Shown one piece after another: positions 2,585-27,100 of a stretch of 64,000 nucleotides of DNA. The notes beneath the pieces were generated by a model, which had not been told where the DNA came from, searched no databases, and saw only the letters and a program-made list of their open reading frames with translations. Source of the stretch: a virus. Lineage: Duplodnaviria > Caudoviricetes. Location: the IMG/VR virus record IMGVR_UViG_3300014043_000503, positions 51,182 through 115,181 of that record, one strand, 5' to 3'. Position 1 is the stretch's first letter. Every line of letters begins with the position of its first letter. The position numbers and the translations under genes were made by a program.

Positions 2585-3955
2585 ATGCCTACAAACACTA
2601 ATTTGGGTGGTGTCTTCATGAAGGACACTGACGGCAATCTGAACACCGGTACATACCTGAGTTCCGAGAACGTCTGTGGTATCATCTTTGACACCAAGGT
2701 CGTTGGAGGTCTCGCAGCAGCTCTCGGAAGCGGCGATGCTGCCACCAACTTTGCAAATGGCAATGTGGTTGAACTGAACACGATGGACGATATTGCCGCA
2801 GCAGGTATCACCTCGTCCGTCATGTGCGGTCTGCCATTGTTCCATCTGACCCAATTCTTCCAGCTGGCAGGCGACAATCAGCGTTTGTTCGTGAGCTTCA
2901 TGGACTCCACGTCCGATGCAAGCTTCACGGCTATTGAGCAGATGCAGCTGGCAGCCAAGGGTCTTATCTATCAGATCGGCGTATGGACAGGTGAGGCTAT
3001 CGCTACCGCTCCTGAAGGCAATGGCGACTACAACGTAGTTACCAACGGAGTCCTCTCCAAGCTTCAGGCACAGGCAGAGGTTCTCGGCGGCAGGATCGGC
3101 CAGACGAACTTCGAGGGCAATGCCCCCGTCAACATCGTCCTCACGGCTCCCATCATCAATGCCGCCACGTGCGACTACAACAAGCTCCCCGACCTGACAT
3201 CCCTGAATATGCCGAAGGTGACTATGCTCGTCGGTCAGGCTGCAGGCAAGGAAGTCCACGACATCCAGCTTGCCCTTGCAACGTCCGTCGGCGAGACTAC
3301 GAGCTATGCACTCGTCGGCTGCGTCGGTGCAGTCCTCGCTTGCCTGGCCGTTGCTCCAGCTGATGAGAGCATTGCCCACGTTGAGAACTTCAACATGGCT
3401 CAGGCAATGACGTCTGCGGAGCTCGGTTTCGGCAACCTTACCGTTACGAGCGGAGCCTACAATGCCGCTGCATCGTTCACCAACATTGACACCATCGGTT
3501 ACACCAAGCGCAACACCAAGCTCCACCAGAAGGGCTATGTCTTCCTGACCACCCTCGACGGCATTGAGAACGGCGTGTTCGCTTCCAGTGACCAGACTCT
3601 CTCTACGGGCGACTACCGCCTTATCTCCCGCTGCCGTGTGATGCACAAGTCTCGCAGGGTTGTCCGTCGCTCCCTCCTCCCCTACGTCAACCAGACCTGG
3701 GAAGTTGACTCAGCCACGGGAACGCTCGGTGAGGATGACATCACCATCATCTCCAACACGGTTTACAGGGCCATTGATAACAACATGGTTCAGCCCGGCA
3801 CCTCGAATCCGCAGATCAGCGGCCGAGAGGTTGTCATCGACCCGAATCAGGACATCCTGTCCTCCGATCAGCTGTTGATCACCTACAAGCTGGTTCCGAA
3901 GGGTACTACGGCTGCCATCTATGTTACCGAAGGGTTTAGTTCAAGCATTGGTTAA
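2585..3955 (+). CDS. Contractile tail sheath protein (DUF2586-like)
   Basis: 456 aa before the tube gene; LHQKGYVF, DQTLS..DYRLISRCRVMHK motifs and C-terminal IDPNQDILS typical of sheath proteins. Confidence 0.8.
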   Translation: MPTNTNLGGVFMKDTDGNLNTGTYLSSENVCGIIFDTKVVGGLAAALGSGDAATNFANGNVVELNTMDDIAAAGITSSVMCGLPLFHLTQFFQLAGDNQRLFVSFMDSTSDASFTAIEQMQLAAKGLIYQIGVWTGEAIATAPEGNGDYNVVTNGVLSKLQAQAEVLGGRIGQTNFEGNAPVNIVLTAPIINAATCDYNKLPDLTSLNMPKVTMLVGQAAGKEVHDIQLALATSVGETTSYALVGCVGAVLACLAVAPADESIAHVENFNMAQAMTSAELGFGNLTVTSGAYNAAASFTNIDTIGYTKRNTKLHQKGYVFLTTLDGIENGVFASSDQTLSTGDYRLISRCRVMHKSRRVVRRSLLPYVNQTWEVDSATGTLGEDDITIISNTVYRAIDNNMVQPGTSNPQISGREVVIDPNQDILSSDQLLITYKLVPKGTTAAIYVTEGFSSSIG

Positions 3956-4522: not shown

Positions 4523-4599
4523 CGTGATTTTTTAAGGAAAGTCCTTCACGCATTCTATTATAAAGCGATTTTAAGTCAAACCGTTTAAACATTTATTCT

Positions 4600-5070
4600 A
4601 TGGAAGAAACAATGAAAGCACAGGAGACCGCAGGTGAGAACGTGGCTCCGGCAGTAGAGAACGCAAACCCTGAGAAGGAAGTTGAAACCGGCTCAATCAG
4701 CGGCGACCTGAAGGGGCTTACGGACGAAATGCGTCAGGCCATCAGCGCGAAGATCGCTGAAATCAAGAAGGAGAAGAAGCTGAAGCGCGTCTATGCCATC
4801 GTCGTGTTCGGTGACGATGAGGACGAGAAGGATGTCTATGTGGGCTACTTCAGGCGTCCTGACTTCCCGACCTACACCATGTTCTCCATGAAAGCCGCCA
4901 ACGACCCCATCCAGGCATCGAGGATGCTTGCCCAGAACTGCTTCGTGGCAGGTGACAAGGAACTGGTGGACGATGATGACCTGTTCTCGTTCGGACTGGC
5001 AGCGCACATCACCGCCCTCATCGAAGGAAGGGACTCTGAACTGGTAAAAGGTTCGAGCGTTGGCAAGTAA
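4600..5070 (+). CDS. Tail assembly chaperone (gpG-like)
   Basis: 156 aa acidic protein after the tube gene; ends at a slippery GGTAAAA overlapping a start-less -1 frame ORF. Confidence 0.75.
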   Translation: MEETMKAQETAGENVAPAVENANPEKEVETGSISGDLKGLTDEMRQAISAKIAEIKKEKKLKRVYAIVVFGDDEDEKDVYVGYFRRPDFPTYTMFSMKAANDPIQASRMLAQNCFVAGDKELVDDDDLFSFGLAAHITALIEGRDSELVKGSSVGK

Positions 5071-5255
5071 AGGATGACGGGCTTCGCCAGCGCTACATCT
5101 TCATAGCGTACTACTTCCCCCACATAAGGATTGAAGAGCTCGACGATGAGCAGTTTGCCTTCTGGTCTGAGAATGCGCTCTACATGCACAGCCAGGTATT
5201 ACAGGGAATGCAGGCTCAGGCTTTAGGAGCGGCTTTCGGGGGAGCGGCTAAATAG
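5043..5255 (+). CDS. -1 frame extension of the tail chaperone (gpGT-like), absent from the ORF track
   Basis: -1 frame reads KRFERWQVKDDGLRQRYIFIAYYFPHIRIEELDDEQFAFWSENALYMH...GGAAK* with phage-like codon usage and no start codon near its 5' end. Confidence 0.7.
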   Translation, partial: GKRFERWQVKDDGLRQRYIFIAYYFPHIRIEELDDEQFAFWSENALYMHSQVLQGMQAQALGAAFGGAAK

Positions 5256-5294
5256 GGTTGAGAGTTTTGATAACCGCCAGCCCTTTTTCTAAGG

Positions 5295-5410
5295 AACTGC
5301 AAACCTGTCTTTTGTCAGACTGGATTTACTGCATTGGCGTTTCATAGGGTGTCTGTTGACATTGCCCTCACCGCCCAGAACCCCGTTTCCTTACGGGGTT
5401 TTATTTTTTA
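5295..5410 (-). ncRNA. Putative TnpB omega-RNA scaffold (approximate ends)
   Basis: Hairpins overlapping and following the tnpB stop (AACCCCGT-AAGGAA-ACGGGGTT; GAGGG...CCCT; TGCAG...TGCAG arm), at the position expected for omega-RNA. Confidence 0.5.
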
Positions 5411-6536
5411 TCGCAACCAAAGCTTGAGGGTGCAAGCCAAACTGCAATATGTTCTTAGCTGCATTGACATCCCTGTCATGATGTTCTCCACATACAGGAC
5501 ACGTCCATTCTCTCACTTTAAGGTTTTTCACTTCTTTATTTTGATGACCACAATTACTGCATATTTGTGAACTTGGATCAAAACGCCCAATAAACACAAT
5601 GTTTTTCCCACGCCATTCAGCTTTATAGGTCAACTGTCTTACAAATTCATTCCAGGCAACGTCTGATATGCTTTTTGCAAGATGGTTATTTTTCAGCATT
5701 CCGCTAATGTTTAAGTCTTCCAGACACACAGTGTCATAATTCTTAATAAGGTTCGTTGACAGTTTATGAAGATAATCAACCTTTTGGTTTCTTACCTTTC
5801 TATATTGCCTTGCAACTTTTAACCTTAATATTTCATGACGCTTAGAGTGTTTATCGGTTCTTGCGAATTTTTGCTGAAGCCTTTTTAGTTTCTTTTCTCC
5901 ACATTTAAAATGTTTTGGATTAATATACTTTGTACCATCAGAAAGTATGGCAAAATCCTTGATTCCCAAATCAATACCAATGGCAGTTTCTTCTTGTATC
6001 TTGACTTTCGATACAATGGGATTGTCATCATCAACTGTGATTGAGCACCAATAATCGCCACATCTATCCTTATATACAGTTAACGTTCCTATTTTACAGG
6101 CAGATAGGTCAAATTTACGGTTTTTACACAGTTTAACCCAACCCACCTTTGGAATCTTTACCTTGTAATTGTCAAAATCAAAATGTACATTATTTATAAA
6201 TTTACAAACACTCTTTGAATGTTTCTTTGATTTAAATCTTGGAAAATCCGCTTTTGCTTTGAAAAATCTTGTAAAGGCATTATCGAGATTTCTCAATGAC
6301 TGCTGCAACACGTTTATAGAGCATTCATTAAGCCATTTTGTTTCTTCTTGTTGCTTTAGAACCGTAAGTTCTTTAGCAAGCTGGATGTAAGTGAGATTTT
6401 TCTTGCTTTCTTTGTAAGCATTGATTTTACGATCAAGACCCCAATTATATATGAAACGGGCACACCCGAAGAATTGGGACAACATACGTTGCTGTCTCAC
6501 AGTCGGTTTAATCTTGTATTTATACGCCCTTTCCAT
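5391..6536 (-). CDS. tnpB: TnpB RNA-guided nuclease (IS200/IS605 family), no tnpA
   Basis: N-terminal HTH, RuvC-I GIDLG, RuvC-II LEDL, Zn ribbon CSNC/CPVC, RuvC-III DRDVNAA; AT-rich compared with flanks. Confidence 0.93.
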
Positions 6537-6561
6537 AATAGAAAACTTAAATTTTTTATTC

Positions 6562-6669
6562 TAATAGTATCTCAAGCCAACGAATATTTACAATCAATGT
6601 ATTTTTTAAGTTTTGTTAGCAAGGTTTGAAAATAAATAAATGGAGACTATCAAATCTATTATATAAAAA
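6562..6669. promoter_or_regulatory. Divergent late-promoter unit, copy 1
   Basis: TAATAGTA (6562), CAAGGTTTGAAAATAAAT (6620-6637), CTATTATATAAAAA (6656); same layout as 14883-14990. Confidence 0.65.
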
Positions 6670-6679
6670 TTATACCACA

Positions 6680-8005
6680 ATGCCCGGATTAGGAAAGGTA
6701 ACACTTGGAACCGTCAGCGACAATTCATATATCAACATATCGTTTGACGAAAGTATTTGCGGAATGCTGTTTGACTACAGTTCAGACAGCGGTGTTTTTG
6801 ACGCTCACCAGCTGATAGCCACCAACTTTGCGGACGGCCAGACTGTCGTTCTGAACGGTCTCGGTGACGCTGAAGGCTACGGTCTGCTGGATGAGAGCTT
6901 CATGTACGGCATCCCAGCCTACCATATCAGGAGGTTCTATGAGTTTGCCGACGATGATGCCGAGCTTTATGTCATGTTCGCCTCCTGCATCGCTGAATCT
7001 CAGGTATATACGCCAGACTTCAGCTGCATCCAGACCATGCAGAGGGCCGCGAAGGGAAAGATATTCAACCTCGGTATCTGGACGGAGCAGAGCGTATGGC
7101 AGATGAACGGAGAGGAAATAGGCTTCACCCCGCTCATAGGAAACATACAGTCTCAGGCCATGGAGCTGTGCGGAGGCGACGGCATGTTTGCCAACAACGT
7201 ATCTCCGCTAACCGTCATCCTCAATGCCAACACGTCTTCCATTTCCGGCTCTGACAGTAGGGAGGTGGATTTCAAGCACCTGCCCTATGCCAATTCGCTC
7301 GAATGCAACAAGGTAACGCTTCAGATAGGCCAGGAATCCTCGGACAAGATACACTCCATGCAGCTCTCAACGGTCTCGTTGACACCCGTGGGGCTGATGG
7401 GCGTTGCACTCGGATTCCTCAACAGGGCGTCGGCTGAGGAAAGCATGGGCTTCGTAAAGAAATACGATATCAACGTAAACGACACCCTCCCAGACGTTGA
7501 GCTTGGATTCGGGAACGTCAGCGTGGGAGGCGACAACTACTACACCCCGCTATCAGACGTCAACAGGTTCCGCCAGAACATCATGTCTGAAAGCGGCTAC
7601 GTGTTCCCGACCAGCTATATCCCAAATGAAGGATCGCTGTACTTCAACAACGACCAGACCCTTTCCGAGAAGGACTTCAAGTACATATCAAGGAACAGGG
7701 TCATGAGCAAGGTGAAGCGCATCATCAGGAGCATCATGCTCCCGATGGTCAACGGCAGCCTCCTCGTGAACCATAAGACCGGCTACCTTGACAATGCCGA
7801 GATTACGGTCATCATGAGCAGGATTATCAGCGCGCTTGACGAATACCTCATCAATCCTGAAGGCCAGCTGCAAGTGGGCGGCAGGTGGGTTGACATCCCA
7901 TTGGATCAGAAAGTGCTTGAAACGGATTCTATCAGCATGACCGTCCAGATCGTACCGCTCGACACCTCCGAGGTAATCAAGTTTGAAGACACGTATAGCA
8001 TTTAA
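6680..8005 (+). CDS. Second tail sheath-like protein (paralogue of 2585..3955)
   Basis: Shares ICG, LYVMF, LGIWT, ELGFGN, DQTLS, RVMxK motifs with the first sheath; ATG 6680 follows the late motif. Confidence 0.75.
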   Translation: MPGLGKVTLGTVSDNSYINISFDESICGMLFDYSSDSGVFDAHQLIATNFADGQTVVLNGLGDAEGYGLLDESFMYGIPAYHIRRFYEFADDDAELYVMFASCIAESQVYTPDFSCIQTMQRAAKGKIFNLGIWTEQSVWQMNGEEIGFTPLIGNIQSQAMELCGGDGMFANNVSPLTVILNANTSSISGSDSREVDFKHLPYANSLECNKVTLQIGQESSDKIHSMQLSTVSLTPVGLMGVALGFLNRASAEESMGFVKKYDINVNDTLPDVELGFGNVSVGGDNYYTPLSDVNRFRQNIMSESGYVFPTSYIPNEGSLYFNNDQTLSEKDFKYISRNRVMSKVKRIIRSIMLPMVNGSLLVNHKTGYLDNAEITVIMSRIISALDEYLINPEGQLQVGGRWVDIPLDQKVLETDSISMTVQIVPLDTSEVIKFEDTYSI

Positions 8006-8030
8006 TCACCAAAAAAAATAAGCATATATA

Positions 8031-11000
8031 ATGGCAGATAGGGTTTATTCAGTCAGATATGACATTGTTGCTGAAGCAGGCAAGGCTATAGAAACATTCA
8101 ATTCCTTGCAGAATCCGCTTTATAATTTAAAGCGAAATTCGCAAAAGCTGTCTTCCAGCCTTATGACAACGGTAGAGCGGCTTAATACGCTTAAAGAGAC
8201 TTTGGACAAAATCTCAAGCACGAGCAGAAATATAGAAATAAGCGTTACCTTTGATATTGCCTCCTTTAATAGAAACCTGAAAGAAATGGAGCTAAACGCA
8301 AGGGCTTCTGCAAACAGGATCAGGGGTACGTTTGAATCTGTTTTCAAGGATACTCATGGTGATTACATGAAAAAGCAATCTCTTCTCGGCACGCCAATAG
8401 AGCAGGGCGTGTCTTCGGGAGACAAGGAGTTGAGAAAGAGGCTAAAAAAGGAAAACAAGACTATGCAATCCCTTATTGGTAAAATGAGGGAAGCGAGAAA
8501 GCAGGCTGATATTTATACTATAGCAAAAAGAAATCTGGCCGGTAATGTCAGCGAAAAAGATGCTATCAGCTCAATTTCGAGCATATGGAAGGGCTTTGGC
8601 AAAACATCACTGGCCAGTTTAAAAAAGAAGATAAGAGAAGGAGTTTATGATACGACTGTCTTATTGGATAAGGCTGAGAAAGACTTGTGGAGGTCTTTGA
8701 ATGCAGGGGCGCTTGCTCCTTTGGAGAATGGTTCTTTTTTGAACCTTGTCGATGTGGCAAGAGATAATACTGACAAGATATTTAAAGCTATAGAAGAAAG
8801 AAGGAAGTCAAATATTGCAAATATAGCGTCAGTTCAGAAAGAGCAAAAGGATATTGCAAAGAATACAAAGCCGTTAATGGGTAGCCAAAAGGTTGTTCCG
8901 GGGCAACCTTTCCTTTCTGAAATATCAACCAATCCAAGGGAAATAGCAAAAATCAGCGAGGCATATACAAAAATGCTCAGGAATATCTCTAAGATAGGCA
9001 ACAAGAACATTTCCGTAAATGTACGTGGCAACTACAGAAGTCACATGGAAAGCCTTGCTGAATTTGCCAAGACAATGCCGTTATTGAAAAGTAGGACAGT
9101 TAAAGTTAACGTAAACGTAAGCGGTCTTTCAAAAACAAGTCTTTCAAAAATAAAGGAACTGAGTGGGATAACCGACAAGAAAGTCCCGGTTTCCCTTACA
9201 TTGTCATACAAGAATGCAAGAGATCAGGTTCCACGTACCCTTGGCGTGCTTCAGAGGATCATCGCTGAAAGGGGAGGTGTAAAGGTTCCGCTCACTATAG
9301 ACCGTACAAAGGTCGGTGGGCAGCTCAATAGCCTTGTCAGGAACCTCAGGACGCTTATAGCTGAGAACAGGCTGACAATCCCGGTCAACCTTCAGAGCCT
9401 TGACATGAAGAAGCCTAAGAACGTGCCGACCATTAACGTGAAGGCGAAGGTTACTGGCCTGACGAGTGCCGTGAGGGAGGCTAACAAGGCATTCCAGGAG
9501 AGGGTGAGGAACATGAAGAACTCCCCTGCCCTTAAAATACCCATACAGCTGAAGTGGGGCGACAAGGAGAACAACATGAGGGCTCAGATCAAGCGTATGC
9601 AGTCTTCGATCCCAGCCCTGAAGGTAAGCGTTGACCTGACGCTTGCGAAAGCCCAGATAGATGACCTTGCAGCCTATATCCAGAGAAAGGGTATCATCAA
9701 CATGGGTGCCATGTCAGGGCCTAAGTCTCAGGGGCCGTTCAGGAACTACAGGCCAGGCTCAGGTGAATCGTTCGCTGCTGGCGCTGTCGGTGGCGGAAGA
9801 AGAGGTTCTGGAGGTGGTGACAGCGGAGGCCGTGTATATGGCGGCGGAGGCGAAGGCAGCAACTTCCTGACAAGGCTGAGAAGGTTCGCATACCCACTCA
9901 CAGGAAACCTTTCCTACGGTGCATCATCCCCGATGGCCCTGCAGATGTTCAAGGATATGCCTGTGATGATGGGTGTGGGCGGTGCCATCGGTGCCGTGAC
10001 GAACGGTATCGGACAGGCATTCGAATATCAGGACACAATGCGAGTGGCAAGGTCTATCCTCGAAAGGAGCTATAAGGGCAACAACTTCGAGAAGGACTAC
10101 AGGAACATGGAAATGACCGCGAGGAACGTTGCGAGGAATACCAAGTTCACAGGCAAGGAGGCTGCTGATGCCGTCCGCTTCATGGCTATGGCAGGACTGG
10201 ACATCCCGAAGATCAACAGCTCCATCAAGCCTATCGCGGACATCGCCCTCATCGGCAGGAACAACCTCGGTGACATTGCCGACATCATGACCAACGTCCA
10301 GACCACCTACAAGATACCGGCAGACAAGATGGAGCGCATGGCAGACGCTATGGCCAACACCTTCACCAAGACGAACGTCGATATGATGATGATTGCGGAA
10401 TCCCTGAAGTATGCGGGCGGTATCGCTCAGCTTACGGGAACGTCGCTCGGTGATTCGCTCGCCATGATCGGCATCATGGGTAACAACGGTATCCAAGGCT
10501 CGATGGCCGGTACTTCAACCCGTATGATGATGCAGAACATGATACGCCCGAACAAGGGTCAGGCTGCCATGTGGAAGAGCCTCGGCATCAGCACCACGGA
10601 CGAGCATGGCTTCGTGAAGGATCCAATCAAGCTCCTTGGTGAGCTGAAGGGCTACGTTGACAAGAAATACGGAAGCAAGGAATACATGGAGCTCGGAAAG
10701 GGCGAGGAGTTCAAGAACAAGGCTCTGGGAACGCTTGTCTCCAACATGTTCCGCGTCACCTCTACGGCTGGCGTGGCTGCCCTGCTGCGTGACTATGACA
10801 AGCTGGTAGAGCTTTCGGAATCCAACAAGAGCAGTTCCATCAACGGACTCTCAAGCCGTCTCTCAGGCTTCCAGCAGAATGAGGTGAAGGGTCTTGTCGC
10901 AAAGGTTTCCTCGTCGCTTCAGGAGCAGATACTCCAGATTATCGAGAAGAACACGGGCTGGATCAAGCAGAAGCTCATAGAAGCTAACGAGTGGATGAGC

Positions 11001-13814
11001 TCGCCCGAGACAAAGAGCAAGCTCGAAAGCCTTATCGAGACGCTGAAGAACATCGTTGACGGGTTCATAAACGTCGGCAGGGTCGCTCTCTGGGCCTATG
11101 AGAAGTTTAACAGCATCAAGATATTCGGAAACGGTCTGGTGGATTTCCTTATCAAGTTCCAGCTGTATATGACGGCCATTGGTTCTACGCTCAGGCTTGT
11201 CCTCTCACCACTTAATATCTTCAGCGGATTCAACTTCGGTGGAGGTATGGGCGCTGCTGGTGCTGTTTCAAGCATAGGCAGAATAATGGCTTCTTCTAAG
11301 CCCAGGGTAATTGCCAATGCGATTGGGCAAAGAGTGTATAATACTGAGAATGATGGCCTTGCTCCAATTACTACTGTATATAACTCAGGAAGTTATAAAA
11401 GGCCGTACTCTCGTGGATGGTACTCACCACTTGGGCAAATGCCCGTTGTTCTTGGCCCTATTGGTGCGAGAAATCTTAGGGACGAACAACAAGCATTAGC
11501 TACAATAAGCCCGATACAGCAACGAATGGCCATGTATCAGAGGTCGCGTAGCTATATGACAAGGGGGATGACAAAAAAACAGAAAGCACTTCAATATGCG
11601 TCAATAGACAGGCAGGTTGCCGCAATGCGTTCGCAAATCGCATCAGCAAGAACGGCAGCATATAATGAAACGCTTGCTTATGGCATAATGTCAAATGCAT
11701 TCCCGCTTCTTTATCGTAGGACATCTCCAGTTATTCATGGAAGAACGACGGTGCCTTTTGCTTATAACAGAGAGATGAGACCTATGCCATTCTATCAGTA
11801 TGCAAAAAATGCATCTGCAATCAAATATGGAGGCGCCCCTATAGCAGAATATGCAGGTGAATATAGAAAAAGAGCCGGTATGTATGCGACTATGGCATTA
11901 TCCGGAAAAAACTATAAAAAGCACGCTGAGCATATGAGGCTTGCTGAAATGTATAGAAAGGCAGCGCAACAAGCGGAATGGATGCAAATACAAGAAAGAA
12001 AAGCAGCTTTAGAAAGAATGAAAAAAGCTGCAATGGCTTCAAGAAGACCTCAGCAGCTTCTTGATTCTGAATTAATTTCTGCGTTCATTATGAGCAGAGG
12101 GTTTAAGAGAAGCAAGGGGTTGATTGGCGAATCTTTGAGGGCTAATTTTAGAGCTGGCAGGGCTATGGGTGCTTTCAGGGGCTTAGGAGGCATCAAGAAC
12201 AGTCTTATTTCAAGTTTGACAACTGGATTCATGGGGTTGTCAAAGGCTATGGGGCTTGTGCTCAGTCCTATTGGTTTGGCTACAGCTGCTATCACAACCC
12301 TTGGAGCGGGCGCTTACTACCTTTACAAAAAAGAGAAAGAAGGTAGAGAGGGAGCGCAAAGAACTATGAACCATTTAAAAAAGGTTCAGGAGCTAACCAA
12401 TAGCAGGAATGGTGGTGGTGATTTATCATCGCTTCCAGAATCATCTCCGCTTCATGTTGGCGTAGCTTGGGTAAATAGAAATAAGAACGTTATTAGTCAA
12501 AGTTCCATAAAGGGAAATTCATTATTAAAAAATAATCCGTATTTTAGAGATGTTGTTGATCCTGACAGGGGTGTTCTTGCAAATAGCAAAAGATATAGGG
12601 CCTACAGAAAAGAATTATACGATAAATACATTGCAAATGGATGGAATGTATATGGTGACAACATAATAGATGAATCGACATTTAATAACGGAAATACATG
12701 GTATAAATCCCTCCAAGGAGCATCTATGCTTCAGGGATCAAATTCCAATCGCGTAAGAGCTTGGGAAAAATATATATCAAATCAAGCAGCGAGAATTTCT
12801 GCCATAAAAGATGTCGGTGAGCGCAATAAGGCTTGGGGAGAACTTGAAAAAAGAGTCAATGAGGTTTCAGAAAAATACAAGTTGCAAGCCCAAAATCTGC
12901 AATCCGTTATTGTCTTACAAGAAAAATATGGAGGTAATTTAAAGAACATAGGTCAAGCTGCAATTCTAAACACTTCAGAATATAGGATAGCAGAGGCTAA
13001 AGCTATTGCTAACCTTATGACGAATATGGGTAACAATGCAGTCGGTCATTTTATTGCTTCTCACGTTCTTGATGCTGGAATTAAAGACAAAACTGGAGCA
13101 GCTATAAGGGCGTTAATTAGTGATATGCCCATTGGAGTTGCAAATGATTTTGGCCAATCATATAAAACAAATTTATCATTTGATAAGAGTGGCAATATTG
13201 ATTGGAAAAAGTTACAAGAGACACTTGAAAAGAATGGTATTGATTTTAAGCTTACTGTAGATAATAAAATATCTGTCTTGTCTTCTTTATTAGCACAAAT
13301 TAAGGGGAATCCTTATTATGCTAAGGTAACTGAATATCTACAAAAGATATTGAATGCTCAATTAGCAGTTACGGAAGCTGAAAACACCCTTAAAAGACTG
13401 AATAGCGTTGATTTCTGGAGAGGTTTGTTTGACGGTATTATCGACGGGCCGAATCCAGTCAGAGAAATGCAGCGAAATACAGAAAGCAAAGTCAAAGAGG
13501 ATGTTAAAAAGTGGAATAGTGATGATGGCGGATATATACGCCGTCCAAGAATGTTTAGAAGTCCGTTTGCCGATTATGCTAATAAAGCCTCTTACTCGAC
13601 AACTGAAAGCATGGGCAATAATAAATATATAACAAATGCGAGCTATGGTAAAGGCTATAACACCAGGCAGAATGTTGTTGTTAATGTTGGCGGCATTACA
13701 GTCAATAATGATGCTGACATAAATGAAATTGAAGAGAGAATTGAAAGAGGGGTTGTTACTGCAATGAGGGCAGTGATGACCGACCAAAGCAATGATTCAA
13801 TCTACAATATCTAA
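8031..13814 (+). CDS. Tape measure protein
   Basis: 1927 aa; TP901-type core (TKFTGKEAADAVRFMAMAG, ESLKYAG, GIQGSMAGT); hydrophobic helices in the C-terminal half. Confidence 0.92.
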   Translation: MADRVYSVRYDIVAEAGKAIETFNSLQNPLYNLKRNSQKLSSSLMTTVERLNTLKETLDKISSTSRNIEISVTFDIASFNRNLKEMELNARASANRIRGTFESVFKDTHGDYMKKQSLLGTPIEQGVSSGDKELRKRLKKENKTMQSLIGKMREARKQADIYTIAKRNLAGNVSEKDAISSISSIWKGFGKTSLASLKKKIREGVYDTTVLLDKAEKDLWRSLNAGALAPLENGSFLNLVDVARDNTDKIFKAIEERRKSNIANIASVQKEQKDIAKNTKPLMGSQKVVPGQPFLSEISTNPREIAKISEAYTKMLRNISKIGNKNISVNVRGNYRSHMESLAEFAKTMPLLKSRTVKVNVNVSGLSKTSLSKIKELSGITDKKVPVSLTLSYKNARDQVPRTLGVLQRIIAERGGVKVPLTIDRTKVGGQLNSLVRNLRTLIAENRLTIPVNLQSLDMKKPKNVPTINVKAKVTGLTSAVREANKAFQERVRNMKNSPALKIPIQLKWGDKENNMRAQIKRMQSSIPALKVSVDLTLAKAQIDDLAAYIQRKGIINMGAMSGPKSQGPFRNYRPGSGESFAAGAVGGGRRGSGGGDSGGRVYGGGGEGSNFLTRLRRFAYPLTGNLSYGASSPMALQMFKDMPVMMGVGGAIGAVTNGIGQAFEYQDTMRVARSILERSYKGNNFEKDYRNMEMTARNVARNTKFTGKEAADAVRFMAMAGLDIPKINSSIKPIADIALIGRNNLGDIADIMTNVQTTYKIPADKMERMADAMANTFTKTNVDMMMIAESLKYAGGIAQLTGTSLGDSLAMIGIMGNNGIQGSMAGTSTRMMMQNMIRPNKGQAAMWKSLGISTTDEHGFVKDPIKLLGELKGYVDKKYGSKEYMELGKGEEFKNKALGTLVSNMFRVTSTAGVAALLRDYDKLVELSESNKSSSINGLSSRLSGFQQNEVKGLVAKVSSSLQEQILQIIEKNTGWIKQKLIEANEWMSSPETKSKLESLIETLKNIVDGFINVGRVALWAYEKFNSIKIFGNGLVDFLIKFQLYMTAIGSTLRLVLSPLNIFSGFNFGGGMGAAGAVSSIGRIMASSKPRVIANAIGQRVYNTENDGLAPITTVYNSGSYKRPYSRGWYSPLGQMPVVLGPIGARNLRDEQQALATISPIQQRMAMYQRSRSYMTRGMTKKQKALQYASIDRQVAAMRSQIASARTAAYNETLAYGIMSNAFPLLYRRTSPVIHGRTTVPFAYNREMRPMPFYQYAKNASAIKYGGAPIAEYAGEYRKRAGMYATMALSGKNYKKHAEHMRLAEMYRKAAQQAEWMQIQERKAALERMKKAAMASRRPQQLLDSELISAFIMSRGFKRSKGLIGESLRANFRAGRAMGAFRGLGGIKNSLISSLTTGFMGLSKAMGLVLSPIGLATAAITTLGAGAYYLYKKEKEGREGAQRTMNHLKKVQELTNSRNGGGDLSSLPESSPLHVGVAWVNRNKNVISQSSIKGNSLLKNNPYFRDVVDPDRGVLANSKRYRAYRKELYDKYIANGWNVYGDNIIDESTFNNGNTWYKSLQGASMLQGSNSNRVRAWEKYISNQAARISAIKDVGERNKAWGELEKRVNEVSEKYKLQAQNLQSVIVLQEKYGGNLKNIGQAAILNTSEYRIAEAKAIANLMTNMGNNAVGHFIASHVLDAGIKDKTGAAIRALISDMPIGVANDFGQSYKTNLSFDKSGNIDWKKLQETLEKNGIDFKLTVDNKISVLSSLLAQIKGNPYYAKVTEYLQKILNAQLAVTEAENTLKRLNSVDFWRGLFDGIIDGPNPVREMQRNTESKVKEDVKKWNSDDGGYIRRPRMFRSPFADYANKASYSTTESMGNNKYITNASYGKGYNTRQNVVVNVGGITVNNDADINEIEERIERGVVTAMRAVMTDQSNDSIYNI

Positions 13815-13817
13815 AAG

Positions 13818-13850
13818 TAAGGCTGGCGAAATACGTCAGCCTTATTATTT
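13818..13850. terminator. Hairpin terminator between convergent genes, probably bidirectional
   Basis: TAAGGCTGGCG-AAATA-CGTCAGCCTTA stem with A-rich and T-rich flanks. Confidence 0.75.
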
Positions 13851-13851
13851 G

Positions 13852-14088
13852 TCATTCTATTTCAACCCATGCAGTATCGACTCTTAACGGTGAATCTTCA
13901 GGAAGAGTAGATAGGTCAAAGTCACCATTATTGTTATTTGTCATCTCTTTTACTTTTTCCAAATGATCAAATGTTCGTTTTACACCTTCTTTGGCTCTCA
14001 CTTCTCCTTTATATAGAAAATGCCCCACAATACAGGCTAAAACAAAGAAAAAGGAAATCGCTAAAGCCAAAATAGTATTCTTTTTCAT
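13852..14088 (-). CDS. Small single-pass membrane protein homologous to tape measure residues 1431-1481
   Basis: MKK plus hydrophobic anchor, then 51 aa with 30 ungapped identities to the TMP; has its own promoter. Confidence 0.85.
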   Translation of the reverse strand: MKKNTILALAISFFFVLACIVGHFLYKGEVRAKEGVKRTFDHLEKVKEMTNNNNGDFDLSTLPEDSPLRVDTAWVEIE

Positions 14089-14112
14089 ATCTTTCAGGTT
14101 TTAAGTTTTCGG

Positions 14113-14144
14113 CAAATATATTTCGAAATATCAGAATTTCCAAA
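14113..14144 (-). promoter_or_regulatory. Bacteroidota sigma-A type promoter for the TMP-like small gene
   Basis: TTTG (14144-14141), 20-nt spacer, TATATTTG (14120-14113): matches TTTG-N19-21-TAnnTTTG. Confidence 0.8.
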
Positions 14145-14240
14145 AAGAAAGCGAAAATTTTGTATTCTTTCACAACTTAAAACGATTTTGCCCTTCCCAA
14201 AACTTTCTTTTTGTTTATTTTTTCTTTTAGAAATAAACAA

Positions 14241-14878
14241 CTGCTGGGGACAGCTGGAGAGCAGCATTCCCTTACCCGCAAATGTTGGTTTGCGGTTTGA
14301 AGGGATATTATGACTTACTCTCCGAGGTCGTTACAACTGCAGTACGACGAGCCTTGTATGAGCGCAACATTTGCAGCCGTCTTTTTAGGTTACTGGATTC
14401 ACCATCAGACTGTCACTACTTACACAAATTGGACTGTGCATTTGCGTCGCAGGTTCATTCAGGAGTCCTTTCCTGTGAGTTCCACCACCCCGCTCATCTT
14501 GCAAGTTTCCGGCCTGCAAGCCCTTCCCGTGGTGCCGCCTTTACTAACTCTTCTTCCCTGGCGGTCTCGCTCGCTCCCGGTGGCGCTGAATACCCGTCGG
14601 TTTCCCTCTCCGCTTTCAAAACCTTACTCCTGCCTTTTGAAACCCGTTCAAATACAGTTTCGGTTTATCCATCCCTCAGATTGGTACTCATTAGCGAGCC
14701 AGTCGTCTATCGGATCCCAGCTTGCCATCGCTTTACAGTTGCGGAGTAATCTCGACGCAAAAGGCAGGCCCCGGCCTTCCCCGATGTTTGTGAGTGGAGC
14801 TTACTATCAGACGACGGAGTTCACACCACTAAGGTTTTCTTGAGAACAAAGGCTAACCGTTATGAACCTTGATTTTTT
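14241..14878 (-). ncRNA. Large structured non-coding RNA, ROOL/GOLLD-like (approximate ends)
   Basis: GC-rich island between AT-rich spacers with no credible CDS; local and long-range complementary segments; purine-rich minus strand preceded by CTATTAT. Confidence 0.65.
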
Positions 14879-14882
14879 TGCA

Positions 14883-14990
14883 TAATAGTAGCCTTGTCTT
14901 TCAAATCTTGCAGCATTGGCCTTGATTTATATTTTATTAACAAGGTTTGAAAATAAATGCCATTGCCAAACATGACTATTATTTAAAAAA
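14883..14990. promoter_or_regulatory. Divergent late-promoter unit, copy 2
   Basis: TAATAGTA (14883), CAAGGTTTGAAAATAAAT (14941-14958), CTATTAT (14976). Confidence 0.65.
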
Positions 14991-14999
14991 ATTGAAGTA

Positions 15000-16085
15000 A
15001 TGGCAAAATCAGGATTCATAAAGCTGACGGACGACGTGCTTCAGAGCGGAGCAAGCTCAGCCATCAGCGCAACGGCCTCCATCGGCATAGACTGGCTGAA
15101 CACTCAGTTTGGCAGCGGATTCAGGAGTAGCGGCACGAAGTTCTACTGGAATAAGGACATGCACGGCGGGATACTTGACGTCGTGGTGAGCAGTGCGTTT
15201 ACGACCATGAGCGGCATGCTGAAAGACTATGCCCTGGAACAGTATAAGAACCTGATAGGGCTGAACAAGAAAGGCAATGTCAATGGAACCAACGAGGCTG
15301 TAAAAATCATCAGCGATAACTTCAAGACCCCGACTGACCAGGTTAAAGGGAGCGAATACGGCATTGTCTCGATAGGTGACGGCAAGACTATCTCTGCTCT
15401 TGATTGTTATGGAAACAGATGTGTCGATGCCATCATGCTGAAAATACCCCTGAAGACACCTATCAACATTACAAGGAAGATTGCAAGAAGCAACGGAGAC
15501 AGTTCTGCCGGAAGCTATAAGGAAACAATATCCAGCAAATACCTCGTCTGGTATGACTGCACGGCCATCGTAGCCCCCAACAGCAAGAAGAACATCCTCG
15601 TTACGAAGGTGAGCGGAAGGGACTACAGCCGAAAGGAATTTATCTCGAACGGTGACATAGAGTTCTCAGTCTCTGGCAGGCTCAACAGCAACATTGCCGA
15701 CGTGTATCCTGAGAACGAGGTGAAGAAGTTCAAGCACATCATGGACTACAAGGGGCTGATAGAGGTGAACAACCAGGTTCTCAATACGCTGGGCGTGGAG
15801 AAGATATTGGTTCTGGACTGGGACATCAGCCCCCAGAAGGGATATAAGAACATGCTGGAGTATTCCTTTCACGGCATAGGCATCATGCCGTCCGTGGAGG
15901 TCAAGGCTTCAGAGGACACCGTTACCTTCATCAACTCTGCCATTGCATCCGGTTCTTCTGAAAGGACAGGCTGGAGTGCCCTTCTCAGCAACAAGCTTGA
16001 GGGCTTGAAGGAGGCATCCGTAGGCATACTTGACCAGGGTGCATCCACCGCGATAGGAATACTTGACAACGACTATATACTTTAA
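15000..16085 (+). CDS. Tail/baseplate protein (DUF6046-like tube initiator)
   Basis: KKNILVTKVSGRDYSRKEFISNGDIEF and YPENEV motifs; first structural gene after the TMP. Confidence 0.6.
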   Translation: MAKSGFIKLTDDVLQSGASSAISATASIGIDWLNTQFGSGFRSSGTKFYWNKDMHGGILDVVVSSAFTTMSGMLKDYALEQYKNLIGLNKKGNVNGTNEAVKIISDNFKTPTDQVKGSEYGIVSIGDGKTISALDCYGNRCVDAIMLKIPLKTPINITRKIARSNGDSSAGSYKETISSKYLVWYDCTAIVAPNSKKNILVTKVSGRDYSRKEFISNGDIEFSVSGRLNSNIADVYPENEVKKFKHIMDYKGLIEVNNQVLNTLGVEKILVLDWDISPQKGYKNMLEYSFHGIGIMPSVEVKASEDTVTFINSAIASGSSERTGWSALLSNKLEGLKEASVGILDQGASTAIGILDNDYIL

Positions 16086-20958: not shown

Positions 20959-21131
20959 TATACAGGAACGGTCAGGAAACGACGGGCATCTACCATGCAG
21001 GCAGGGCTATAACCGCAGTATATACTGGGTTAAGGCTCGTATGGCAGAACGTCAGGAGTTGCTTTGGCAAGGGTTACTGGATAGACGAGAAGCCGTGGGA
21101 CGATTCCGACGGCTGGAGTGACGGAATTTAA
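20955..21131 (+). CDS. 58-aa Trp-rich fibre-associated protein (not in the ORF track)
   Basis: ATGA overlap; MIYRNGQETTGIYHAGRAITAVYTGLRLVWQNVRSCFGKGYWIDEKPWDDSDGWSDGI*. Confidence 0.7.
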   Translation: MIYRNGQETTGIYHAGRAITAVYTGLRLVWQNVRSCFGKGYWIDEKPWDDSDGWSDGI

Positions 21132-21144
21132 AAAACAAGATATA

Positions 21145-24100
21145 ATGGCAAAGAAGGATTTATATACCGAGGATATTGACAAGCACGTGAACTGGAACGG
21201 TGACGAGACCACCGGCGGCAAGAAAGTCCGTGGCGACAAGGTTCAGAAGTTTATCAAGGACACTTTCGAGGGGAAGGTCGGGTACGTACATACCGACACC
21301 GAGGAAGCGAGGTGCTACGCCTTTGCCGATGAGGAGGAGTACAAGAAGTGGGAGGCGGACGGAAGACCTGAGGGTGCCTATATCTCGACATGGGAAGCCC
21401 CTGCCAACTATTCCGCTGAGATTATCGACAACGACGGTGCTGCCATCAGGTACGTGGCCGTTGACGATAAGGACGTGTATCTCAACTTCACTCCCAGGAT
21501 CACCAACAAGAGCGGCCAGAACACCAACGAATCCGTAACCGTCACGATCACCTACTCCAACAACGGCACGAACGTCACGGTGACGAACAACTACATATCA
21601 GGAACCTCGGTATCAATCCTGATGGACAGCTACCTTCAGGTCGGCACCAACTCCATTACCATCAAGGTGACTGGTGCAAGCTCAAAAGCAACGACCTCCA
21701 TCGGTATCACGGTGTACAAGCTTGCCCTTACCCTTACCTCCACCTTTGCCTTCAACAGCATGTTCCCGACTGGGTATATCAACGTGCCCTACCACCTTGA
21801 GGGAAACGGAACCAAGACCGTAGAGATATTCCTTGACGGCACAAAGGTAGGTGATTCAAGCACCTATTCAACAAAGACTGATAACTCATTCAACGTCAAT
21901 GCGGTAACTGCTGGTGTGCATACCATTCAGTTAAGGGCTTTCATTGACAATAACGGTACGGCATTCTATTCCAGGACGCTGTATTTCCAGGTAGTCGTTG
22001 GCGAGATTGACCGTGTCGGCTTTGCCATGAGCGCAGAGCTTCCAAGGGGCGGGCTTATCACGTCTGACAATTCGGTAGCCCTGACAGGCGAGCAGTTTGC
22101 GAGGATCAATTTCGACTGGGCCATCGTCACTTCAAGGAGCGCCACCTATTCCGTGGTGTTCAACGATGGCACAAGGGACGTAAGCTCCGTTACCACCTCA
22201 AGCGGCCAGCTCCATACGTTCACCTATCTCTCCAAGACCGCAGGCGTAGTCACCATCAGGGTTTCCTACGGCTCGGAGGAACTGGAGATACCCATCACGT
22301 TCGTAGAGAGCACGCTGAAGATAAGCGACTATACCAACGACCTTATCCTTGACCTTTCCGCTGAAGGGCGTTCCAACAGCGACACGGACAAGGACAGCTG
22401 GATATCGAACGGATATGCCTCTACCTTCAGCAACTTCGCATGGAGCAAGAGGAGCGGCTGGAACGGACAGGCCCTCGTGGTTTCAAACGGCGCGACGCTC
22501 GACGTGAACATCAGACCGTTCTCATTCAACCCGACATCGAGGGGAACGACCATCGAGATAGAGTTTGAGACTGCCGACGTTGAGGATGAGGAGGCCGTAA
22601 TCTGCCGTTGCGGTGCCGGTTCGAACGGCCTTACCATCACCCCGGTAAACGCTACGCTGGCGGCAACCGGAGGCTCCAAGATATTCACTGAGTTCAAGAA
22701 CGACGAGCGCATCAGGCTTGCATTCGTCATCAACCCCTATTCGGGCGTAACGGACTCGAAGCTCCTGTATATCGTCAACAACGGTATCAATGAGCGTGGA
22801 AGATCCTATGCCACCCAGAACGACTTCAATATCTCAGACACGCTCCATTTCTATTCAACTGGGGCGACCATCAAGATATACAATATCAGGATCTACCAGC
22901 AGGCCGTTCCAGTGAGCAACCTGCTGGATAACCGCATCATCAGCTCAGACAACATATCATCCCTGTTTGAGAAGAACGACATCTATGAGGACGGCAAGGT
23001 GTCTCTGACGAAGCTGAGGAACATGATCCCCGTCATGTGCATCACCCACATCAACAGGAGCGGAAACCCCTCGCTGCTCTCACTCAGCGACAAGGACACG
23101 CGCTCCTACAACAACGTGGAATACACGAACCCGTTTGACCCGACGAGGAACTTCACGGCCTTCAACATGCGCTGGAGGCTCCAGGGTACTTCATCGCTCA
23201 AGTATCCGAGGAAGAACTTCAGGTTCTACACCAAATACTGCGACTATCTCTATGATGCTAACGGAATCGAGATCACCAGCAAGAAATACTCGTTCAAGGT
23301 CGGTTCCATCCCGGTGAACTGCTTCTGCCTGAAGGCCGATGCAGCGGAATCCTCAGGAACGCACAACACCGGTATTGCAAGGCTCGTGAACGATGCCATG
23401 AAGAACATGAGGATATCATCGAGCGTGGCAGCCAAGTACGGAAAGTCATACGACACCGAATACCTTGGCAAGACGCAGGCCCAGATAAACGCTGAGAACA
23501 ACGGCTACGAATACGACGTGAGAACCTGTATCGACGGTTTCCCGATCGTGATCTTCTACCGCTATTCCGACGTGAGCGACTGGATCTTCCTCGGCCAGTA
23601 CAACTTCAACAACGACAAGTCAACGGAGGACGTGTTCGGCTTCACAGGAGAGAATGCAACAGGCCATTCGGAGTGCTGGGAATGCCTTGACAACACCAAT
23701 CCCAACGCCCTCTTCACGGACATCTCAAACTGGTATGAGGACGTCACGGACGAGGAAGGGAGCACCGTCAAGGGCTGGGAGCGCGCATTCGAGGCCCGCT
23801 ATCCCGATGATGGCTCAGACGCTAACACGGCCAATCTCTATACGTTCGCCACATGGCTCGTAGGCTCAACCGTAGGCTCCGCAAAGTTCACGGCTGAGAA
23901 GTGGGAGCACATGGACGTATGGAAGATGGCAGCCTACTACGTCTATCTGATGAGGTTCGCAGGTGCCGACCAGTTTGTGAAGAACTCCATGCTGACAACC
24001 GAGGACGGCGAGCATTGGTACTACATCAACTACGATAACGATACGGTCATGGGTCTGGAGAACAACGGAGACCTGACGATCCCCTTCAATGCAGACCGCC

Positions 24101-27100
24101 AGACGCAGGCAGCCGACATGACATACGTATTCGCAGGACACAACTCAAAGCTCTGGAACTGCCTTGAGGGTGACGCTGAGTTTATGAACATCGTGAAGGA
24201 CGTTGACCAGGCACTCTACGGCTACTACAACTATGAGTCTTGCTGCAGGATGTTCGATGAGGAGCAGTCTGACAAGTGGTGCGAGGCCATCTACAACGAG
24301 AACGGACGCTACAAGTATATCGAGCCATACCTTGCCGGAACCGACTACCTTGCCATGCTTCAGGGTTCGCGTAAGTCACACCGTCACTACTGGCTCTCAC
24401 ACCGTTTTGAGATGCTGGATGCACGGTGGGGCACGGGCAGCTTCATCCAGAACTCCATCGAGTTCAAGTGCAATACCGGAACGGTGGTGACGGCTGAAAA
24501 GAAGCTCACCATCATCGCCGGAAAGAAGCTCAACTATGCCTGGGGCCTTGATAACGCAATCTATGAGCACACCGGCGTCCTCGATGCGAACGAGACCAAG
24601 GTGTTCATCCCATACGACCAGGGCGTGAGGGAACTCGCCATCGGTAACTCCGTATGTATCTACCCAGCCCCCTGCATCGAGGGCATAGACGTGTCTGACT
24701 TTGCCGACACCATGCGAGAGATACACTTCTCAAAGGCGGCAAACGGATTCACCGGCTGCTACCTGAAGAGGCTCATCATCGGAGGCGCTTCGGTAAACAA
24801 CCAGCTCGACTTCAACATGGACGGCCTGACAGCCATCGGAAGCGTGGAGTATATCGACGTGAGGGGATTCCACAGGATGACCTCGCTCGACCTCTCAACG
24901 CTCATCAACCTCCATACGTTCCTTGCAGAGAACAGCGGTATCACCTCGTTCATCCCATCCTCAGGCTGCGTGCTTGAATCGGTTTCGCTCCCATCCAGCA
25001 TCCAGACGCTTGAGCTTGTGGACGTGACTATCCCGACCGTCAATACGTTTGCATACACCCCGACCAGCGCCCTCCAGTACCTCACCCTCAGGAACGTGAA
25101 GGGTGATGGCATTGACTCGCTCGCCTTCATCATGACATGGCTGAATGCCATCGGAGATGACGAGGAAAGGCTGGCAGAGGTTGAGCTTATCGCAACCAAC
25201 GTGGCTTGGAGCAACGTAACGGTCGAACAGCTGTTTGCCATCGGAAAGATCGGGAACAGGACGCTCTCAGGCGTGGCATCGCTCTCGACCACACCGAGCG
25301 ATGAAGACCTGCAGAAACTCATCGAGCTTTACGGGACAGACTGCTTCAAGTCTGACGCGCTGTTCATGATCGACGCTGAAGGAGGTACGCTTTTCTACGG
25401 CCCCAGCACCCTGAAGTCCGGAGAGGAAAGCTACTACGGCTATATCGGATTCCCCATCACGGGAGGCTCTTCACAGTATTCGCTACTTATCCCGGGAGGT
25501 GTGTACAACGAGACTACGAGGCTATATGAATACGATACCGTGACGCTGAACCCTGAGACCGGCCTTCTGCTTACGACTGAAAGCGGGACGGACTGCGATT
25601 TCGTCATCAGGGCCAAGTCGAACTTTGACGAGAGCGTCTATTTCGAAAAGCAGGTAAGCGTCAAGGCAAGGTCTTATCCCCAGAGCGTCACCCTCACCGT
25701 TGACAGGGAGAACATCAACAGCACCTCACAGGAATGTATCTTCACGGCAGAGCTTTCCCCTGAGGTGTTTGACGGAACCATAAGCGTCGCATGGAGCTGG
25801 AACGACAACAATTTCTACAAGATATCGGAATGGAAGGTTGACAACAACACATATTGTGCCAAGTTCGGTACGGTGTATATCTCAGACAAGCTGCTTGAGG
25901 TAGATGTGACGGCCACCTTCACAACCTATATCGGAGGCGTCGTCGCGGCTTCGTCCTATGTCGTGGTCAGCAACAAGACGATCGCCATGACGAGCAGGAC
26001 GAACCATGAGGCAATGGCGGCTACATACGCGGCTGGATTCAGCAACAGCAGCAGGGTCTTCAGCACCGAGGAGGCCAGGGCCGTGAAGAGCCTTGGCATG
26101 GCCTATGCCGGATCAGACATCGTGACCTTTGACGAGTTCAAGTATTTCACGGGTCTCACCTCCATTCCTGCAGGTGCGTTTGCAGGGTGCCTGAGCCTTG
26201 AGGAAATCACCATCCCGGCTTGTCAGGCCACCATCGGAGATGCGCTCTTTGAAGGCTGTGCATCCCTTGAGAAGATAACGCTCAACCATCCTTCATGGAG
26301 CAACAGGTATCTCGGAAGCGGAACCGTATTGTCTGAGTATGCCGTAGGAGCTGAGAACACCAACCTCAGGAGTTTCGACGGCATCATATACGACGTGCTG
26401 GGAACGGAGCTCTATGCAGTACCGGCCAACATCACGGAGATAGCGTTCGAAAGCACCATGACCGCCATCCATGCAGGCGCGATGGCTTACTGTGACATAG
26501 AGGAAGTGACCATACCGACAGTCATTACAGTCGTTCCCGATCAGATGTGTAAGGGCTGCACTTCCCTTGTCACGGCCATCCTCTCGACTGGAACCGTAAG
26601 CGTTGGCGCAAAGGCTTTCGAGGGCTGCGCTGCGCTGAAGAAGCTTGAGGTAAGGACGGCATCAGTACCTACCCTCGTCAATGCGGATGCGTTTACTGGA
26701 ACGCCCATCAACGGAGGCGCGGGCTATATCTATGCGACTACCGATACATGGGGGGACTTCAAGGCCGCTACCAACTGGATCACATATGCCAGCAACATCA
26801 TCGCTTACATCATCTTTGAGGACGCTGAGGTCAGCAGGATATGTTGCACGACCTGGGGTGACTATATCGAGGTGAAGGTGACTACTGTCATTACCGACGA
26901 AAGCGACGTGGTGAACATCACGACCGTCACCACCCCCGTATCCATGAGAAACACCACCGCTACAAGGGGAACCTCGGTCACTGAGACATCTACGAGGGCC
27001 AAGACTTCTGAAGATACGGCAGGCTCTACGACCACTACCACAAAGACACCCGTCAGCATGACAACCATGCAGGCTGCTGCTGTAAGTTCTATTGGGACTA

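Follow-up and report, generated by a model that had tools for sequence, protein, structure and literature searches.

This analysis concerns a 64,000-nucleotide stretch of phage DNA, here called the window, which belongs to a 115-kb IMG/VR provirus record (IMGVR_UViG_3300014043_000503). In its tail module a small minus-strand gene, which we call S, converges on the gene for the tape measure protein (TMP). S resembles one part of that TMP and is a candidate for a phage exclusion protein. The features of the locus are collected in Table 1. The TMP gene belongs to its class by its PhageMin_Tail domain and by the sheath-like, tube-like and hub genes that flank it.

An earlier note on this DNA had aligned S, without gaps, to the TMP segment encoded at 12321-12473. 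BLASTP, run as a single comparison, confirms the alignment: S residues 22-75 match TMP residues 1428-1481 with no gaps, 30 of 54 positions identical and E=9e-20. The segment follows a hydrophobic helix in both proteins, as the note had said, and the second helix of the TMP hairpin is positionally equivalent to the S anchor. The anchor helices themselves have no S-TMP similarity (17-18% identity). The note had also counted 20 of 30 identical residues with different codons, and our recount agrees, with 10 of the 30 sharing a codon.

Table 1. Features of the S locus and of its tail module (positions in the window; aa, amino acids)
Feature	Position	Strand	Details
S gene (P0001)	13852-14088	minus	78-aa product; convergent on TMP gene
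S protein layout			MKKN start; hydrophobic helix ~5-26; charged helix 27-56; C-terminal LP..SPL motif
S 5' leader, conserved	14089-14112	minus	From upstream-region alignment
S promoter, Bacteroidota type (predicted)	14113-14144	minus	TTTG (-33), 20-nt spacer, TATATTTG (-7)
G+C-rich hairpin, likely bidirectional terminator	13816-13846		Between the two converging stop codons
TMP gene	8031-13814	plus	1927 aa; PF10145 (PhageMin_Tail), E=7e-35; 13 PHROG tape measure families
TMP hydrophobic hairpin, ~residues 1391-1430	12201-12320	plus	Invariant SPIGL core; identity 0.73 among TMPs
TMP residues 1431-1481, segment copied by S ectodomain	12321-12473	plus	
Baseplate hub gene (DUF6046)	15000-16085	plus	Downstream neighbour fixing the S position; second hub-like gene also after S
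Sheath-like gene (DUF2586)	2585-3955		Tube-like and chaperone-like genes also near TMP gene
Tyrosine integrase	28976-29965	minus	PF00589, 69 bits; just past tail module

The S alleles have a common layout: the MKKN start, a single hydrophobic helix with a near-invariant Cys, a charged helix and the LP..SPL motif. Across residues 6-24 the anchor of the window S has a Kyte-Doolittle value of 2.5, and an AlphaFold2 (AF2) monomer model is a single long helix (residues 2-52; pLDDT 65). We considered S as a lipoprotein and rejected this: most alleles have Leu at -1 and hence no usable lipobox, and the hydrophobic stretch runs 5-7 residues past the Cys. Searches against Pfam (E up to 0.1) returned no family for S, YebO (PF13974) included, and PHROGs returned none.

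The signals around S are those of a separate transcription unit. The host-type promoter that the earlier note had read upstream of S, TTTG-N20-TATATTTG, is indeed found there; the full consensus occurs three times in the window against 0.49 expected, and one of the three is the S promoter. In an alignment of the upstream region, 35 nucleotides (nt) that include the -7 box and the leader are near-identical across all nine allele contexts. The coding part of S, by contrast, falls to 33-40% identity between alleles. The terminator hairpin is present in every relative; its arms differ between alleles, with complementarity kept through compensatory changes. The G+C content of S (31-35%) departs from that of its surroundings (38-50%). 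Among close S alleles the ratio of nonsynonymous to synonymous substitution rates (dN/dS) is 0.10-0.27; together with the signals above and the S clusters below, this makes S a real gene under purifying selection.

Contigs from metagenomes provided the relatives. An exhaustive phmmer search with S gave only 6 matches; a profile search gathered 18 S clusters with products of 52-99 aa, mostly 76-84 aa. The order TMP gene, convergent S, DUF6046 hub gene is present in all phage contigs retrieved (S-position contigs L007, L008, L009, L015, L019-L025, L029, L032 and L034-L036). Thus homologues of S occupy the same TMP-hub position in related phages and are kept by purifying selection, two points on which the earlier note's proposal depended. 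Bacteroides phage BS-TP1, a distant relative, has only 3 nt between its TMP gene and the hub gene that follows and carries no S cassette, and a copy of the segment was not detectable in the BS-TP1 TMP. We found no DNA or tblastn match to S in cultured-phage records and no S relative in GTDB species genomes; the ESM Atlas returned chance-level rows only, and scans of IMG/VR only one related contig. The 65-aa open reading frames (ORFs) in L021 and L022 were tried as S homologues and proved unrelated to S.

The tyrosine integrase lies just past the tail module, and the phage is therefore temperate and myovirus-like. Its promoter type and its distant hub homologues, which are in Bacteroides and Flavobacterium phages, point to a Bacteroidota host. 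The term moron denotes a transcription unit that has been added to a phage operon and is independent of it (Juhala et al. 2000, summarised in PMC3594210). S has its own promoter and its own terminator, both predicted signals, together with a deviant G+C content and a patchy presence, being absent from BS-TP1 and present in all close relatives found. On the basis of these signals, the G+C contrast and the lack of the cassette in BS-TP1, we conclude that S has the predicted anatomy of a moron and is an accessory gene of a temperate Bacteroidota myovirus.

Type matching of S and TMP

We extracted the TMP segment, about 55 aligned codons, from the ten contigs that hold both genes. The S alleles fall into about six types that correspond one-to-one with six TMP types, and S and TMP are matched in 8 of the 10 contigs. 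Among eight S alleles, the TMP of the same genome ranked first for five and second for two. Against its own TMP the window S reaches 68 bits, compared with 41-46 bits against other types; the corresponding values are 67 versus 37-54 for L008, 66 versus 39-53 for L015, 70 versus 48-62 for L019 and 62 versus 39-54 for L029. When the eight genomes are permuted in all 40,320 ways, the S-TMP assignment actually observed comes out with the top summed score, in a test that ignores relatedness. The score matrix is not additive, and a single old duplication predicts an additive one. The co-variation that the earlier note had foreseen is therefore present: S is closer to its own TMP segment than to other alleles.

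Further contigs bear on the same point. The P0008 and L025 alleles had no matching TMP in the sample, and the TMP of L029, retrieved later, has the same 13-residue helix run, as type matching predicts. L034, from another sample, adds a further matched pair. Two contigs are mismatched: the S of L007 is of the L019 type, and that of L025 is of the L029 type.

Where in the proteins does the matching lie? In the juxtamembrane helix, S and TMP are 55% identical within a genome and 38% identical between genomes. The C-terminal motif gives 64% and 53%, respectively, and the membrane helix 18% and 17%. By these identities the matching is local, in the helix after the membrane anchor. We also considered the copied segment as a hypervariable region of the TMP and rejected this, its variability being median for the TMP.

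The TMP gene is itself mosaic. L015 and the window are 97% identical over 9769-11265 and 89% identical over the hub region; from 11265 through S they are only 71-78% identical or cannot be aligned. This pattern indicates that the C-terminal third of the TMP and S are exchanged as a single block.

Perhaps copying of DNA between the two genes produced the matching? A recent duplication or conversion is ruled out by the codon data. We counted same-codon use at identical residues, for which random codon choice would give 39%. Cognate S/TMP pairs use the same codon at 47% of such residues, cross-type S/TMP pairs at 48% and S alleles of different types at 59%. The proportions of synonymous differences (pS) for these three classes are 0.75 (saturated), 0.67 and 0.61, and those of nonsynonymous differences (pN) are 0.28, 0.42 and 0.39. 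Runs of 9-15 identical residues in S and its own TMP are encoded by different codons, including two-step switches for Arg and Leu (AGA/CGC, TTA/CTT).

Older copying is harder to set aside. The matching could be purely historical, the result of repeated old conversions or re-duplications from TMP to S in each lineage, without functional coupling, and S could then have an unrelated membrane function or none. An ectodomain tree groups S alleles with TMP segments of the same type (type I clade 98/96), as conversion predicts; synonymous saturation at depth would hide the timing, and one S/TMP pair still has 75% nt identity over 76 nt. However, present nt identity is 57-63%, too low for ongoing conversion, and cognate pairs share codons no more often than cross-type pairs do and less often than S alleles of different types. 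Several features of S occur in no TMP: its start, its anchor with the conserved Cys, its promoter and the Asp in the LP..SPL motif. Any transfer would need to have replaced the helix alone, six times. The dN/dS values exclude a dead relic. We consider this origin of the matching unlikely. The comparisons are read most simply as a single S lineage in which the helix has stayed similar to that of the linked TMP or has followed its changes. Under either origin, the codon and substitution data indicate that both copies have long been held similar by selection.

Chromosomal copies and a proposed action at DNA entry

S is also found outside phage genomes. An allele that is 97% identical (P0004) lies in four metagenome contigs among bacterial genes (RibD, Band_7, PrmA, RecX and phosphoribosyltransferases), at a locus that adjoins a DUF4160/DUF2442 pair. 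These contigs match the provirus only in stretches of 435 nt and 173 nt, which cover S, its promoter and the final 105 nt of the TMP gene, and the first ~160 nt of the hub gene. In six contigs this chromosomal site holds an allele of another type, P0008 (37% identical); identity there is 98% across the flanks and 74% across the S region. Hence S persists there without a TMP gene, and alleles have been exchanged at one site, presumably via the short tail-gene remnants. The occurrence of two S types at one site between flanks that are 98% identical suggests that the contigs come from one host species.

P0008 (77 aa) is preceded in tandem by P0023, a 65-aa S-like gene (L010:2577-2774). P0023 resembles the S family (hhalign probability 88%, E=2.8e-6), with the anchor and helix kept and a different, short C terminus. 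Comparable to it is P0022 (64 aa, L032), a short form of S at the phage position. We considered the chromosomal copies as the mark of an attachment (att) site or as the product of imprecise excision and rejected both: the remnant stems from a mid-genome part of the phage, and beyond it the contigs share nothing with the provirus. Neither S nor the unnamed genes at the chromosomal locus matched any model of PADLOC-DB 2.0, and PHROGs returned nothing for that locus.

These orphan copies bear on whether S serves its own TMP, be it as a helper, bound to the membrane, in tail assembly or ejection, or as a colicin-like immunity protein against premature pore formation by that TMP. S matches its own TMP in 8 of 10 contigs and is tightly linked to it, and the C-terminal third of the TMP is exchanged together with S between close phages such as L015 and the window; nevertheless, S lies within a late operon but on its opposite strand, has a promoter of host type, is intact in chromosomes that have no TMP gene, is mismatched in two phage contigs and is absent from BS-TP1, and we regard such a role as quite improbable. 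For the same reasons (orphans, mismatched pairs, opposite strand and host-type promoter), S is probably not a gene for the phage's own tail assembly.

We propose instead, with the type matching as indirect support, that S is a prophage-expressed, type-specific exclusion protein that would act on the TMP at DNA entry, and we judge the chances of this proposal to be about even. S would be derived from the second membrane helix of the TMP and the ~50 residues after it. A lysogen would make S from the gene's own host-type promoter, and the protein would be anchored in the inner membrane, its N terminus facing the cytoplasm and its C-terminal helix reaching into the periplasm. The hairpin of an incoming TMP would insert from the periplasm, and this would bring the segment past its second helix to the periplasmic face, in the same arrangement as in S. 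When a TMP of the same type comes in, the S helix could pair with its juxtamembrane helix or replace it. That TMP would be kept from completing its DNA channel, and the outcome would be type-specific superinfection exclusion.

The earlier note had read S as a decoy-type exclusion protein, an interpretation that our sequence comparisons partly support. It had allowed for S either poisoning the TMP channel or occupying the host partner of the TMP. A host partner that varies with type seems unlikely, because two S types occur at one site in what is probably one host species. We infer that direct pairing of S with the TMP, or competition for another part of the TMP, is more likely than action through a host partner.

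A more elaborate version is possible but doubtful. S might be a self-derived poison subunit that co-assembles with an incoming TMP of the same type and stalls the channel. There would then be at least six matched specificity pairs, comparable to those of colicins and their immunity proteins, with diversity maintained by frequency-dependent selection and shuffled by phage recombination. Hosts would capture S genes as stand-alone immunity genes, even in tandem.

Could S block tail assembly and not DNA entry? It would then bind the newly made TMP of an invading or competing phage of matching type, as Tab and Tai do. Tab, a product of the Pseudomonas phage JBD26 prophage, acts on phages whose sensitivity has been mapped to the C-terminal part of the TMP (PMC10884400). 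Type matching and orphan copies would fit such a block as well as they fit exclusion at entry. However, on induction a matched S would poison the tails of its own phage as well; no partner gene that would counter S is evident, and the cassette is a single gene in most relatives. In addition, S is anchored in the membrane and copies a membrane-proximal part of the TMP, which points to a membrane step. A block of assembly is accordingly an improbable role for S.

Several observations weigh against exclusion at DNA entry as we propose it. The whole argument is carried by a small sample, ~55 codons and 10 pairs, and the two mismatched pairs come from short metagenome contigs that could be assembly chimeras. 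About 41% of TMP windows are more variable than the copied segment, so that no arms-race signature emerged in the TMP. In all deep comparisons synonymous sites are saturated, and a single S clade is rejected only marginally by the approximately unbiased (AU) test (p=0.043). The matching could also have come from ancient segmental conversion, with purifying selection then acting independently on the two genes. The structure models are weak: the S model has a pLDDT of 65, and that of the TMP segment, at 43, is unusable. Charge leaves the topology of S ambiguous, the value being +2 on the N side of the anchor and, for the 15 residues that come first on the C side, +3. Lastly, conservation of the orphan copy does not exceed that of its flanks (96% versus 94-96%), and at least one orphan variant, P0007, is truncated.

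Neighbouring genes and the hub-S interval

Two DUF2586 paralogues stand in the one tail module, the sheath-like gene of Table 1 and a second at 6626-8005; the same is true of L008. The earlier note had assigned a CTATTAT motif to the structural genes, and this part of it is only modestly supported. Copies at 4555 and 14976 lie 24-45 nt before a start codon; another, at 6656, lies 28 nt before an internal ATG. The second DUF2586 gene probably starts at that ATG, near 6685 and 28 nt past CTATTAT, and not at the TTG at 6626.

A TnpB/IS605 OrfB gene (5391-6536, minus strand; PF07282, PF01385, PF12323) is inserted between the chaperone-like gene and the second sheath-like gene; no TnpB gene is called in the syntenic stretch of L008. 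The tail module is closed by an ORF of 2120 aa (21118-27480), the L008 counterpart of which has 1984 aa. The provirus record has two good integrase matches and one weak match, and its 115 kb compare with 34-56 kb for the related contigs. It may include more than one element, or host DNA.

The interval between the S promoter and the hub gene holds ~700 nt without an ORF (14230-15000, minus strand). Its G+C content reaches 54%, its minus strand is purine-rich, and it ends in a terminator-like hairpin (14256-14238). This stretch is ~76% conserved in L019-L023 and absent from L008, L015, L025, L029 and L032. RNAalifold, applied to four sequences, predicts 170 base pairs, 27 of them with compensatory changes, and the stretch may encode a large structured RNA. 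A search of Rfam over 5000-15300 gave no match. Some relatives among L019-L024 carry a 153-aa RNase H gene (e.g. L020:6449-6910) on the same strand as S and just upstream of it; the hub-S interval is therefore a site of variable cargo.

Candidate S and known exclusion systems

The opening of a DNA channel by the TMP in the inner membrane, and the recognition of the TMP by exclusion proteins, are only now being resolved, mainly for Imm of phage T4. Imm blocks the translocation of the genome and binds the TMP domain that directly follows the TMP membrane helix on its C-terminal side (bioRxiv 10.64898/2026.03.06.709160). As is proposed for S, it is a small phage-encoded inner-membrane protein, and the TMP region that it binds corresponds in position to the one that S copies. 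Unlike S, Imm has several helices, is an early gene of a virulent phage and is not reported in that study as TMP-like; S has one anchor helix, is a paralogue of a TMP segment and comes in types that match TMP types. S had no Pfam match that would place it in the Imm family, and it has a single hydrophobic helix.

In gene organisation S has a parallel in gp15 of phage HK97, an inner-membrane moron product whose gene adjoins the TMP gene. It is made by the prophage and keeps DNA from entering, with sensitivity depending on the phage tail region (PMC3594210). It was the first moron to be described, and homologues occur outside prophages in bacterial chromosomes (PMC3594210). Both gp15 and S are small membrane proteins whose genes each come with a promoter and a terminator to themselves and lie in the tail operon beside the TMP gene. 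They differ in descent and placement: gp15 comes from host yebO and lies upstream of the TMP gene, whereas S is TMP-derived by its sequence, lies downstream and is convergent.

A third protein, Ltp of Streptococcus thermophilus phage TP-J34, is reportedly a prophage-encoded envelope protein whose exclusion targets the TMP, as described by Bebeacua and colleagues in 2013. Unlike S, Ltp is a lipoprotein with a helix-turn-helix-like repeat fold and a Gram-positive host, and S has no similarity to it.

The Tab and Tai systems resemble S in being encoded by prophages or genomic islands, and their specificity lies in the C-terminal part of the TMP (PMC10884400 for Tab). They differ in that they act at a cytoplasmic assembly step, need a paired counter-defence and are not reported as TMP paralogues; S is membrane-anchored and stand-alone. 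By analogy only, the proposed S also resembles the colicin immunity proteins, small inner-membrane, type-specific neutralisers of an incoming pore-forming helical domain, although these are not copies of the colicin segment that they block. The authors of the T4 Imm study draw the same analogy (bioRxiv 10.64898/2026.03.06.709160).

If the proposal is right, S and the TMP would supply about six naturally matched "lock and copy" pairs, with specificity held in a swappable helix of ~30 residues. They would point to the part of the TMP that self-associates or meets a partner at the membrane. They would also illustrate a simple route to phage immunity, in which a phage duplicates a piece of its own entry machinery and expresses it in the lysogen. 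It would then become possible to predict from sequence which prophages or chromosomal remnants of gut Bacteroidota exclude which phages, with a bearing on phage-host dynamics in the microbiome.

The earlier note knew of no described case. As regards exclusion proteins that act on the TMP, the statement was too broad, T4 Imm, HK97 gp15 and Ltp all being known. It holds for a candidate that is TMP-derived and type-matched: our full-text literature search found no TMP-derived exclusion protein described. Compared with exclusion of the Imm or gp15 kind, therefore, what is new in S is its apparent descent from the TMP together with its match in type.

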